A stretch of DNA of 63,963 nucleotides, filler included, from an uncultured archaeon (GTDB lineage: Archaea > Iainarchaeota > Iainarchaeia > Iainarchaeales > 1-14-0-10-31-34): assembly GCA_964442255.1 (NCBI GenBank). It is 3 parts of 3 records of this genome, joined end to end, with 100 filler letters (N's around TTAATTAATTAA, not from the genome) between each part and the next. Parts side by side here need not be neighbours in the genome. Positions count along the whole stretch, not along the records: positions 1 to 28,579 come from CAYTYC010000015.1; positions 28,680 to 56,999 come from CAYTYC010000016.1; 1 more part is not named here. One strand, written 5' to 3'. Numbering within the stretch: the stretch's first letter is position 1; the number at the start of each line of letters is the position of its first letter. A program made the position numbers. Positions 27,001 to 30,000 of the stretch are shown here, one piece after another.

Positions 27001-30000
27001 AAGGCATTGCACAATTAAATGGCTTTCACCGTATAAAAAGCTTTTCCTTTCCCGCCCTCTGCAAAAAAGGCGCCTGAAAAGGTTTATTAAGTTTGTTTGA
27101 ATAATTCCATATAAACTGCAGGGGTGGCGGAGTGGTTTAACGCGGCAGCCTGCTAACGCGGTTTCGCCCGCGTGCGACGAGATACGTCAAGGGGTTTCCC
27201 TTTGGTCAACCCCTTATAAATATGTTTTTTGTTGCAAGGCAGAAAGCTGTTGCCCTTATGGGCGCGCGAGTTCGAATCTCGCCCCCTGCGTTTATGCCGG
27301 CTTTCCACAAAACCAAACGAAGAAAACCCGCCCCAAAGTTTGGGGAAGACTACTTTCAAGCCAACAAAAAAGACTTTAATCCGGCGTTTTTCGTAAAAAG
27401 CCTGCGAGAACGCTCTGGAATGCTGGCAAAAAACCACAGGAAGGCAGAGCAGGTAGCAAATACCCTTACAGGCGTTTTATCATACTTACTGAGAACTGCT
27501 AGCAACCCTGAACCTTTGAAAAAGTCTGATTTGATAAAGCTTAGAGAATTAGATTGGAAAACGCAAAAAATACATGAATCGTTTTGGGAAGACATGCAAA
27601 AGATTTTTTCAGACGGGTATCTGCAAAGAGCCGGATTCGGGAGGGGAGGGCATGCAATAGATGAACACCGCAAAAATATTCACGAGATTGCTCGCAGAAA
27701 AAACGAGATTAGAGCTGCAATGAATGCCCTTTGGTCCACTAAAAATCATCAACCGGTTAGGCCGCCAAGCAAGATACGGCCTATTGACGAAGGATAAAAC
27801 ATAAAAACCAAACCTTGAGTACAGATTGTTGCGGAAGGCGCAAAGTGGAAAAAAATGGGCTTGAGGATAATAAAACACGCGAGAGAAAGAATGCATGAAT
27901 ACGGCATAACCGAAGAACAAATCAAAGAAACCCTGCAAAACCCGGACATATTGTCGGAGGGAAAACAAAAAAGAAAGATCGCCCAAAAAAGGTTAAATAC
28001 TTACATATTAAGGGTTATATATGAAAAAAACGGGGAAACCAAAACAGTTATCACGGCCTACAAAGCAAAGAGGGAAAGGTATGAAATATGAGTACGACAA
28101 GGAATCCGACATCTTAACCATTAAGCTGAGGGACGAAAAGCCTGATTTCGGGGAACAGACAGGCAATGTAATCACCCACTACAACAAGGAAAACAGGCCC
28201 GTGGAAATCGAGATACTGGATGCAAGCGAAACCGCCCTGGAAATGCTCAAGGCAATGCTGCCCAAAAAGGCGGTTGCCAAAGCTTAATAACTTTTTCTTG
28301 CCCAACTAAGAACAGGCACGGCGGGATACCGAAGTGGCCAAACGGGTCAGACTCAAGTGAACTTTTTTAGAAAAAAAGTTTAATCAAAAAAAGCTTTTTG
28401 AGAAAAAGCTTTAGCAAAAACCTCCGCTTACGCGGAGAAAAACTTTTGATGAATTGTTTGGAGAGATCTGATGGCTTAGTGCCTTCGGGGGTTCGAATCC
28501 TCCTCCCGCCAAAACTTTTTTGGAAAAAAAGTTTTATCAAAAAAATTCTGCCTTCGGCAGTAAAACTTTTTGGAAAAAANNNNNNNNNNNNNNNNNNNNN
28601 NNNNNNNNNNNNNNNNNNNNNNNTTAATTAATTAANNNNNNNNNNNNNNNNNNNNNNNNNNNNNNNNNNNNNNNNNNNNTTTTGAAAAGTTTCTCCGCCG
28701 AAGGCGACCCTTTTTGATCAAACTTTTTTGAAAAAAGTTTGTTTTGATGAAACTTTTTCCCAAAAAGTTTCCCCCTTAAGGAAGCCGTCTACTTTTCCAA
28801 CACAGGAACCACAAAAACCTGCAGATTTTTTCGCGTCTTCCACTCTTTTGTCCACTTTGACGTATTTGAGTTTTCTGTGCCTAATCACTAACCCAGGAAT
28901 CTGTTTCTTTAGTTTTTCATGGAATTTTTGCTGGCCCGCATACTGTTCCGGCTCTATTTTAAGACTTTTAATCGCGTCATAGAAGAAAGACCTTTGAATG
29001 TTAAACTTTTTTGACAGTTCTGAATAAAACCAGCCGTATTCAAAACAACCAAATATTTTGTTTTGCTTCAACCCATGGTAAAGGTTTGAACCGTCAATAA
29101 ACAAGTAGCTTTTTTTTTCATGATGAAAATGAGCCCGGGTTTGCCGAAGCAACCGCGGGGCTGCAATAAAGACTATTATATGTTTCATCATTTTTAAAGC
29201 TTTCTGGTAAGGCAAAAAACGAAAAAACCCCCAAAATAAGCCAAATAAGGAAGAAAGCCCCTTAAACCAATCCGTGCTTTCTTGGCTTTTTGAAGGCGTG
29301 CATATAATTTAATTATTGGTTACCCTAATGCTTATTTATGCCTGGCAAAATTAAAAAGCCAAAGCCTGCAGCAAAAAATAAAAGGGAAAGGTATTTGGGG
29401 CTGAAAAGGCTTCCGGAAGGATTTTCCTGGTTCAGGGCAAAGGCATACGAAATGGTTGTAAGCACTGCGGAAGCAAAACGCTTTATCCCAGGCAACTGGA
29501 ACTTCAAGAGCCTTGCGCCCGCAGAACCGGTGCCTGTTGAAAGCGTGCCGCAGGCTGTCAGGGGCTTCACCAAAAAAACAGGGAAAAAGGTTTTCGGCTT
29601 TTTCCTTAAGCCAGTTAAAGAGGCCGCCCAGTTGGAAGACCTGCTTGAATTAAAGAAAAGGGTTAAAGTAGAGGAGCCGCTTGGGTTGATTGTTTTTTGC
29701 GGAGGCCTGCAGCCAAGAAAAAGAAAGAAAGCGGCTGAACTGATGAAAGCCGGGCAGATTTACGCGATAACAAAATTTGCGGAAGGCTCTTTGCTTGGTG
29801 ACATAATATGGGTGATGTTTCCGGAAAAAAGAAAAACAAAGATAGTCGGGGACCTGGGAAAATGGATGTCTGACTTTCACAAATCTGGCAGGGTCCACGG
29901 CGACGTGCACCCTTGGAATTTCATTGTCCCTGAAACGGAGTTAATTTACGAGCGAAGGAGGCTTAAGCCCATAACGCTTGACCCTGAAACGATTCAAAAT

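Follow-up and report, generated by a model that had tools for sequence, protein, structure and literature searches.

The window analysed here, a stretch of 63,963 nucleotides including filler, comes from an uncultured archaeon of the phylum Iainarchaeota (genome G000), for which the public runs listed are three DNA metagenome runs from one study, with no RNA run among them. Its plus strand carries a tRNA-Ser(GCU) gene at 27118-27290 (Rfam tRNA, 43.8 bits including the insert), and the two-hairpin motif H1-M lies within this gene at 27152-27225. The 5′ exon (27118-27155, +) ends at A37, with the anticodon loop CUGCUA read from the sequence, and the 3′ exon occupies 27245-27290 (+), both in agreement with the Rfam tRNA match. 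Between the exons, a predicted intron of 89 nt (27156-27244, +) interrupts the gene at the canonical position 37/38, as judged from the sequence and its minimum-free-energy fold (z = -4.34). The splice sites are predicted from a bulge-helix-bulge (BHB) in sequence and fold, in which a 4-bp central helix, CUGC (27150-27153) with GCAG (27239-27242), stands between two 3-nt bulges (U36 A37 A and AAA), the arrangement expected of a BHB intron. The outer helix h′ between the 5′ and 3′ parts of the intron is absent, the bases 5′ of GCAG being unpaired with the intron start; in the folded sequence its place is filled by a local hairpin, H1. G000 encodes RNase Z as well as one EndA endonuclease of 170 aa, which carries both Pfam domains and matches the homotetramer chain 1a79 of M. 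jannaschii end to end (residues 3-168).

Five parts of the motif can be delimited within the intron, all on the plus strand. H1 (27156-27173) starts at intron base 1 or 2 and is a 6-bp hairpin, ACGCGG/CCGCGU, closed by the 6-nt loop UUUCGC; across the alignment it is 87% paired, with double-sided changes in all six pairs. The linker contains CGAGA (27178-27182), the 3′ strand of a pseudoknot with the H1 loop (UUUCG, 27162-27166), and ends in the conserved box AUACGUC (27182-27188), whose AUA probably pairs with UAU of the 3′ box in a candidate helix, P3. H2 (27189-27215) is an 8-bp hairpin, AAGGGGUU/AACCCCUU, with an 11-nt loop, 97.1% pairing and double-sided changes in 8 of 8 pairs. The element ends with the conserved box AUAAAUAU (27216-27223), the columns of which are invariant or nearly so. 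A second copy of the motif is present in the window on the minus strand (11506-11582; R1 model, 44.5 bits, E 1.2e-6), in the intron of a tRNA-Glu(UUC) gene at 11454-11617 (-; Rfam tRNA, 53.1 bits).

The fold was examined on 92 distinct sequences. H1 is paired in 87% and H2 in 97% of the cells, all 14 pairs show changes on both sides, and an unsupervised ranking by mutual information places all H1 and H2 pairs at the top, so the covariation of both stems claimed in the earlier note is borne out. On an unfitted MAFFT alignment, RNAalifold recovered H2, and the occurrence of H1 in two registers caused it to miss that hairpin. The H1 loop and the linker, whose pairing is not part of the covariance model, are 79.5% paired versus 68.7% in shuffles (0/500), with 40 double-change cells versus 10.4. 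An alignment-free duplex test gave a mean of -3.81 kcal/mol for a copy's own strands versus -2.30 for cross pairs, with none of 1,000 permutations as low, and the permutation test was also passed by 53 copies with variant loops. By this covariation and these duplex energies, a pseudoknot is formed between the H1 loop and the linker; its pair 20-39 was dropped, 64 of the 92 sequences being unpaired there. Pairing is also probable between the AUACGUC and AUAAAUAU boxes, in a non-canonical or irregular helix: pairs 44-99, 45-98 and 46-97 are 92-95% paired, with four double changes at 44-99 and seven at 45-98, and pair 47-96 is composed of C.A (52), U-A (24) and C-G (7). A helix longer than three or four pairs was rejected, pairs 41-102, 42-101 and 43-100 being only 45-49% paired. 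The whole 20-pair structure has 86.3% paired cells versus 58.3% in shuffles (0/500), although such shuffle statistics overstate the support because copies from related genomes are not independent. G.U outnumbers A.C in H1 (27:8), and the two are balanced in H2 (11:13) and in the pseudoknot (29:25); the strand that folds is therefore only weakly indicated. By covariation, H1-M is thus a structured element.

The covariance model R1, built independently from a MAFFT alignment of 14 copies, finds 20 copies in G000 at E < 0.01, as had been counted before, and 21 at E ≤ 1, while a sequence-only nhmmer iteration finds 16. Eight of the 20 copies are in introns, all at the canonical position 37/38, and in six of these H1 starts at intron base 1-2. 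Five begin 0-3 nt past a tRNA 3′ end, and six lie 77-412 nt 3′ of a tRNA on the same strand, in hairpin arrays or past a duplicated tRNA 3′ fragment. The earlier note had assigned every copy to a tRNA intron (8) or trailer (12) on the tRNA strand; in G000 this holds, with eight copies in introns, 11 copies at 0-412 nt behind a tRNA, and one copy (C17:27628) at the end of a contig whose available sequence has no tRNA there.

The specificity for tRNA genes does not extend to the relatives. The motif had been reported from 17 of 40 related genomes; its presence in relatives is upheld, and in a new and different sample of 150 other genomes from the phylum, 25 match R1 at E ≤ 1e-3, all of them from one order and spread over 13 families, and 125 are without the motif. 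Among 76 copies in relatives, only 23 occupy an intron or follow a tRNA on its own strand; eight adjoin a tRNA 5′ end and are on the strand opposite to it, nine are near a tRNA in other arrangements, and 36 have no tRNA in the examined flank. Read by eye, the flanks place the element at gene ends in either orientation, with many copies at the ends of protein genes and accompanied by direct repeats, and the motif therefore behaves as a mobile repeat. Many copies in relatives face away from the adjoining gene and leave no space for a promoter of their own. Of the description as a structured RNA motif of tRNA introns and trailers, the structured part is thus retained and extended by the pseudoknot, and the restriction to tRNAs is not. 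In several families the motif is carried by the introns of tRNA-Ser(GCU), Glu(UUC) and Pro(UGG), an observation that, against a mobile element, could mean a conserved cellular function.

Several observations point to movement of the element. In 21 of 91 copies the element lies between direct repeats of 12-46 nt that exceed the 99th percentile of 445 cross-locus controls, the other 70 having no clear direct repeat. The upstream repeat terminates precisely at H1's first base, and the downstream repeats in relatives start 0-17 nt past the AUAAAUAU box; the repeats would be target-site duplications made on insertion. At one locus (L018) the repeat is identical in 33 of 33 positions, and the same site in a sister genome (L019) has the element and lacks this repeat, so local duplication after insertion may account for at least some of the repeats. 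In the complete genome G001, two unrelated loci share an identical 72-nt element, each locus having repeats of its own (41 and 17 nt), and 52 of 93 copies have their nearest relative in the same genome. The Ser(GCU) copy in the window is 91% identical to the copy in the tRNA-Arg(UCU) intron of G000, and no Ser(GCU) intron copy of another genome is as close to it. Filled and empty orthologous sites were also found: in G018 the element comes after the stop codon of PurH, and it is missing from the orthologous site in G012 and G003, and the tRNA-Val(GAC) trailer has it in G000 and lacks it in four relatives. Behind tRNA-Leu(GAG) of G000, a 3′ fragment of the tRNA is repeated downstream together with the element. 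At the same position of the Ser(GCU) intron, other, unrelated hairpin families occur in G012, G108 and G003; the intron slot is kept and its content turns over.

The element was compared with known classes of mobile and structured sequences. A MITE was rejected, since the H1 and AUAAAUAU ends are not inverted copies of each other, terminal inverted repeats are absent and the direct repeats (12-46 nt) have no fixed length; we know of no transposase that such repeat lengths would fit. Remnants of the att sites of integrated elements were likewise rejected, the repeats spanning only about 70-300 nt and the intron copies being left unexplained. As for viral carriers, a 20-base degenerate pattern of the main subfamily gave 10 matches in IMG/VR, none confirmed by the model. 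A SINE-like retroposed element would account for duplications of variable length, as seen in the 21 copies with repeats; a reverse transcriptase as the mobiliser was rejected for lack of association: RVT_1, the sole Pfam family searched, was not found in G000 (93.8% complete) or G001 and was found in one of five copy-rich genomes. Neither RVT_1 nor the Y1 transposase tracks with the element. A terminator at the 3′ end of the element was set aside, at least four T within 15 nt being found in 30 of 93 copies versus 23% of control windows, too weak an enrichment. The motif itself has no counterpart in Rfam: a search of 27100-27310 on the motif strand returned nothing at E ≤ 10, ribozyme and riboswitch families included, so that the absence of an Rfam match noted before holds even at this threshold; ten loci gave only tRNA at E ≤ 1, and the window gave only tRNA at the gathering score. 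No description of the element was found in the literature outside subscription journals.

Three archaeal systems offer partial parallels. In Thermoproteales, introns with related sequences are found in several tRNA genes of the same genome, and transposing tRNA introns have been proposed (Fujishima et al. 2010, Mol Biol Evol 27:2233, as summarised in PMC10714607). The 91% identity of the Ser(GCU) and Arg(UCU) intron copies in G000 is similar, and the Thermoproteales introns are, in the excerpt of PMC10714607, likewise regarded as mobile elements that the BHB endonuclease excises. Unlike them, H1-M is a long unit (about 70 nt) with a conserved pseudoknotted fold, its eight intron copies in G000 are all at the canonical position, and it is also found outside tRNAs, in trailers and at the ends of protein genes, in either orientation and with direct repeats. 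Nanoarchaeum equitans has tRNA-linked, intron-borne and 'mobile' C/D box sRNAs (Randau 2012, as far as the excerpt of PMC3491384 goes). Like these, H1-M is found in tRNA introns and directly behind tRNAs, where an RNase Z cut would make its 5′ end, and it shows signs of mobility in a DPANN archaeon. In contrast to them, the H1-M consensus contains no box C or D and has no Rfam snoRNA or sRNA match; a C/D box, H/ACA or kink-turn reading was rejected on the same grounds, the consensus lacking all such boxes. In Pyrobaculum calidifontis, MITE-like elements resembling sRNAs have been described (Lui et al. 2018, in the excerpt of PMC6009581). H1-M resembles the elements described there in being short, multi-copy, similar to an sRNA gene and spread as a repetitive element; it differs in having no terminal inverted repeats or C/D features, in its long and variable flanking repeats, and in its presence across 13 families of one order rather than in one species.

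The strict 5′ boundary and the elaborate fold would also be expected if H1-M were a gene family for a trans-acting small RNA or RNP that rides on tRNA transcripts, with RNase Z or EndA freeing the folded RNA and its conserved unpaired bases binding a protein or target. The start of H1 is exactly where either enzyme, both of them encoded, would be expected to cut, the bases outside the helices include invariant ones, different families retain the motif in the same introns, and the dicistronic tRNA-sRNA precursors and intron-borne, mobile sRNAs of N. equitans provide a precedent (excerpt of PMC3491384). This is nevertheless unlikely, given the unrelated hairpins in the Ser(GCU) intron of three relatives, the 125 of 150 sampled genomes without the motif and the many copies that face away from their neighbour with no promoter space; moreover, no guide region, target complementarity or known protein-binding motif was recognised in H1-M. 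The same 5′ boundary, together with the size, the pseudoknot, the conserved internal-loop bases and the link to a mobile repeat, would suit a new small self-cleaving ribozyme that cuts its own 5′ edge and frees tRNA 3′ ends or 5′ exons with the end chemistry of the splicing endonuclease. Such a ribozyme, a matter of pure inference, is scarcely credible: no Rfam ribozyme family matches at E ≤ 10, the antisense copies at gene starts would have no such role, and none is needed because RNase Z and EndA are both present.

Two further explanations place the function in DNA. The earlier note had raised a promoter, and the AUAAAUAU box could be an archaeal TATA box that drives the downstream (or, reversed, the upstream) sequence, the hairpins being incidental. 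The box does resemble TATA-like sequences 26-35 nt 5′ of tRNA genes in G000, for example ATTAAATATG ahead of tRNA-Arg(UCU); many copies in relatives lie just 5′ of a ribosome-binding site and start codon, and at L018 and L019 the box is about 16 nt before the start codon in sense orientation. A promoter cassette is quite improbable, however, since the spacing between the box and the following feature is not fixed (+14 to +60 nt to the 3′ exon in intron copies, a spread on which a fixed promoter for the 3′ tRNA half was rejected, and about 70 nt antisense at protein genes), no BRE is conserved, its position being taken by the covarying 3′ strand of H2, and the AUACGUC box, its co-variation with AUAAAUAU, the pseudoknot and the intron copies would be left unexplained. 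Bacterial REP/REPIN sequences with their RAYT transposases are short extragenic hairpin repeats whose structure is conserved more than their sequence, as is true of H1-M, and a single-stranded hairpin repeat of the REP/REPIN or IS200/IS605 type, moved by a Y1 (HUH) transposase, would agree with hairpins next to conserved bases, an extragenic location, a strand-specific consensus, the neutral G.U to A.C ratio in H2 and two Y1_Tnp genes in G000. Y1 transposases are present in only 9 of 26 motif genomes versus 27 of 125 others, however, and Y1_Tnp was not found in G054, G144 or the complete genome G001, which has 11 copies at E ≤ 1e-3 (12 at E ≤ 0.01); no model match adjoins either Y1 gene of G000. 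The pseudoknot, the tRNA intron copies and the direct repeats also set H1-M apart, REP/RAYT and IS200/IS605 systems making no target duplications. Mobilisation by Y1 is thus very improbable.

The explanation that we favour, with a probability of about 0.6, is that in one order of Iainarchaeota (DPANN) H1-M acts as a small, non-autonomous mobile element, some 70 nt in length, that folds as a single strand. The H1 loop-linker pseudoknot would stack on the irregular AUACGUC/AUAAAUAU helix, with H2 as a cap, and the folded strand may be what the mobilising machinery recognises. The element would ride in the discarded parts of tRNA transcripts and persist in tRNA introns at 37/38, in the first bases past tRNA 3′ ends and at the outer edges of protein genes, where it would survive because the extra sequence is cut away or lies outside the mature products and is harmless. 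In introns, H1, one base past the 5′ splice site, probably serves as the outer helix beside the 5′ bulge of the BHB, so that the host endonuclease would remove the whole insert. It is conceivable, if distinctly unlikely, that the processed RNA is itself the transposition intermediate, with RNase Z or EndA making its 5′ end and a DNA copy of it then being placed at gene ends with long, variable target duplications.

In summary, one defined element is found in four settings, namely canonical tRNA introns, behind tRNA 3′ ends, against tRNA 5′ ends and at protein-gene ends, and the repeats, the identical copies at unrelated sites and the filled versus empty orthologous sites tie the content of the introns to an active repeat family. 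To our knowledge, it is not settled how the tRNA genes of archaea acquire introns, and intron transposition has been inferred only from similarity between intron sequences; H1-M bears on this question because its behaviour is that of a small jumping element. For a repeat, a fold with two hairpins, a pseudoknot and a probable box-box helix is unusually elaborate, and such a fold without an Rfam match implies an unknown recognition machinery or RNA activity. If an RNA intermediate were involved, H1-M would be an archaeal counterpart of SINEs or introners by which tRNA introns are created and renewed, and its fold would be a handle for an enzyme or itself catalytic.

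The copy of the two-hairpin element H1-M at 27152-27225 lies inside a tRNA-Ser(GCU) gene at 27118-27290 (Rfam tRNA model, 43.8 bits), which by our reading of sequence and fold is split by an 89-nt intron at 37/38. The element comprises a 6-bp hairpin at the intron start (H1, 27156-27173), a linker ending in AUACGUC, an 8-bp hairpin (H2, 27189-27215) and, directly after H2, the AUAAAUAU box (27216-27223); the final 21 intron bases pair with the anticodon loop in the bulge-helix-bulge. Without introns, ARAGORN called no tRNA at this gene or elsewhere in the window. With introns, it called, close to the end of the contig (28320-28511, + strand), a tRNA-Leu(CAA) containing an intron of 108 nt, which the Rfam tRNA model at gathering score did not report.

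Sequence-only nhmmer iteration seeded with the window copy recovered 16 copies in this genome (G000; 1.28 Mb, 51 contigs). R1, a covariance model independently built from a MAFFT alignment of 14 copies (A1) with H1 and H2 entered by hand, gave 20 matches at E<0.01, the same number as in the earlier note, and 21 at E<=1. These include another copy from the window, at 11506-11582 (- strand) within the intron of tRNA-Glu(UUC). Eight of the 20 copies are intronic (tRNA Ser GCU, Arg UCU, Glu CUC, Glu UUC, Gly CCC, Gln UUG, Pro CGG and Pro UGG), five begin 0-3 nt past a tRNA 3' end, six sit 77-412 nt downstream of a tRNA on the tRNA strand, and the last, at the end of a contig, has no tRNA in the available sequence. 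Behind tRNA-Leu(GAG), a 25-nt tRNA 3' fragment recurs along with H1-M in a tandem array (C17:22700-23520, containing a 100-N assembly gap), whose units consist of the tRNA 3' fragment, H1-M, the tRNA 3' end again as an imperfect antisense copy, and an A/T palindrome.

Other repeats accompany tRNA genes in G000. An A/T-rich palindrome, AAACYTTTT..AAAARGTTT (90 pattern matches, both strands counted), stands directly 5' of several tRNA genes and also in trailers. A third module resembles a tRNA T-arm, being a GAACC..GGUUC hairpin with CGAUACCUCC after it (C1:84094-84336, C4:5340-5595, C5:25839-25900); it recurs within the long tRNA-Gln(UUG) and tRNA-Glu(CUC) introns and downstream of tRNA-Leu(UAA). 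At C42:2627-2690, a duplicated tRNA-Gln 5' fragment with an A/T palindrome lies immediately upstream of tRNA-Gln(CUG), the mirror of the 3'-fragment duplications.

Among 150 further genomes of the phylum that were sampled, 25 had R1 matches (E<=1e-3); all 25 belong to the same order and represent 13 families, and the complete genome G001 has 11 matches. For the 76 copies outside G000, tRNAs were called by ARAGORN, one being confirmed by Rfam. Of these copies, 23 were intronic or downstream of a tRNA on its strand, eight lay against the 5' end of a tRNA on the other strand, nine were near a tRNA in other arrangements, and 36 had no tRNA in the flank examined. The earlier note had placed every copy in tRNA introns or trailers, which stands in G000 for 19 of 20 copies and fails in relatives; its remark that many copies there lack a nearby tRNA is borne out. 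Flanks read directly place H1-M in relatives immediately 3' of stop codons of sense genes, or immediately upstream of the ribosome-binding site and start codon of oppositely oriented genes. At two loci (L030 in G052, L063 in G054) it comes after the stop codon of a gene with Gly/Met-rich repeats at its end, a putative thermosome subunit judging from its C-terminus alone.

To characterize the fold, 93 matches from 26 genomes were aligned to R1 (A2) and covariation was counted on 92 distinct rows. H1 was paired in 87.0% of cells with both-side changes in 6/6 pairs, and H2 in 97.1% with such changes in 8/8 pairs, in an alignment fitted to both stems, as was the one behind the earlier claim of covariation. 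Independently of that fit, an unsupervised mutual-information ranking placed the H1 and H2 pairs first, upholding this claim, followed by pairs 16-42 and 18-41 of a pseudoknot. RNAalifold on the unfitted alignment A1 recovered H2 with compensatory changes and did not recover H1, because H1 copies sit in two registers.

The pseudoknot, absent from R1 and likewise independent of its fit, joins the linker (mostly CGAAA) to the H1 loop (mostly UUUCG). Its five pairs were 79.5% paired, compared with 68.7% in shuffles (0/500), with 40 double-change cells compared with 10.4 (0/500), in tests inflated by the relatedness of copies; slid controls were 31-54% paired. Variants include UUCCG:CGGAA, UUGCG:CGCA, GCCG:CGGC, AGGU:ACCU and GGGU:ACCC. 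In an alignment-free test, each copy's loop paired better with its own linker than with those of other copies (mean -3.81 versus -2.30 kcal/mol; 0/1000 permutations as low), also in the 53 copies without UUUCG in the loop. The ranking further flagged pairs between the two boxes, A44-U99, U45-A98 and A46-U97 (92-95% paired), among which a few Watson-Crick double changes occur (AAAAACG with AUUU). At 47-96, 52 sequences have C.A, 24 have U-A and seven have C-G, and G48 faces A93 in 77/92. These patterns modestly suggest that the AUACGUC and AUAAAUAU boxes form a short irregular helix continuing H2, although the double-change sequences may share ancestry. The G.U:A.C ratio was 27:8 for H1, 11:13 for H2 and 29:25 for the pseudoknot; the folding strand is therefore only weakly indicated, by the G.U excess of H1.

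H1-M is most likely a discrete mobile unit of ~70 nt with a conserved fold. The 12-46 nt immediately 5' of H1 are often repeated shortly after the AUAAAUAU box, and 21 of 91 copies have flanking direct repeats above the 99th percentile of 445 cross-locus controls, the other 70 lacking clear ones. In nearly all of these 21, the upstream repeat stops at the first H1 base; the downstream repeat begins 0-17 nt past the box, or 40-56 nt past it in tRNA cases, where the repeat spans the T-arm to the 3' end. In G072, a second, orphaned tRNA 3' fragment is still trailed by the original T-run. G001 has two identical 72-nt H1-M copies at unrelated loci, one flanked by a repeat of 41 nt and the other by a different one of 17 nt. 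At one shared site a perfect repeat is present in G131 and absent in G056, so that some repeats may have arisen later by local duplication. In G018, H1-M comes after the stop codon of PurH; the orthologous sites in G012, of the same genus, and in G003 lack it. The trailer of tRNA-Val(GAC) contains H1-M in G000, and other hairpins or none in four relatives. The nearest neighbour comes from the same genome for 52 of 93 copies. The tRNA-Ser(GCU) copy of the window shares 91% identity with that in the tRNA-Arg(UCU) intron of G000 and is far less similar to those in the tRNA-Ser(GCU) introns of G001, G072 and G056, where compensatory changes keep the fold. Other hairpin families occupy the same intron position in G012, G108 and G003; in G012 and G108 (L110, L112) the intron is the A/T-rich palindrome.

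The earlier note had allowed for a promoter role, and the AUAAAUAU box, read as a TATA-like element, does resemble local TATA sequences of G000; however, neither the AUACGUC partner nor the pseudoknot would be needed for a promoter, nor would the intron copies, and the box stands at varying distances from the downstream feature. A REP-like repeat has little support, since Y1 transposase occurs in 9/26 motif genomes versus 27/125 others. No tested enzyme tracks H1-M: Y1 was not found in G001, and RVT_1 was not found in G000 and is present in only one of five copy-rich genomes. G000 has two Y1 (IS200/IS605-type) genes (C21:4219-4587, + strand, 124 bits; C9:47136-47477, - strand, 49.5 bits), neither adjoined by an R1 match. 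There is also little support for a ribozyme, H1-M matching no Rfam family, ribozymes and riboswitches included, as previously stated. It is possible that H1-M is a trans-acting small RNA carried on tRNA transcripts, the way in which N. equitans is reported to produce its mobile tRNA-linked C/D box sRNAs (PMC3491384). The mobile unit proposed here has a common logic with these sRNAs, with the transposing tRNA introns of Thermoproteales (summarised in PMC10714607) and with the MITE-like sRNA elements of Pyrobaculum (PMC6009581), but lies outside each family. Literature searches gave no account of H1-M, consistent with its being unreported.

G000 encodes RNase Z and a single EndA, the tRNA splicing endonuclease, of 170 aa with a full-length match to the M. 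jannaschii homotetramer chain. A tRNA-Phe(GAA)-like gene (C3:56200-56330, - strand), matched by Rfam over model positions 9-63 only and missed by ARAGORN, has an apparent ~35-nt insert in the D-loop region; as an intron it would be non-canonical, in a genome whose one EndA is of 170 aa. H1-like hairpins without the rest of H1-M follow most other tRNA genes of G000. In 6/8 intron copies of G000, H1 begins at intron base 1-2 and is the sole helix beside the 5' bulge. In H1-M introns, H1 may serve as the outer helix of the bulge-helix-bulge, and the mobile unit would persist where it is excised or harmless.
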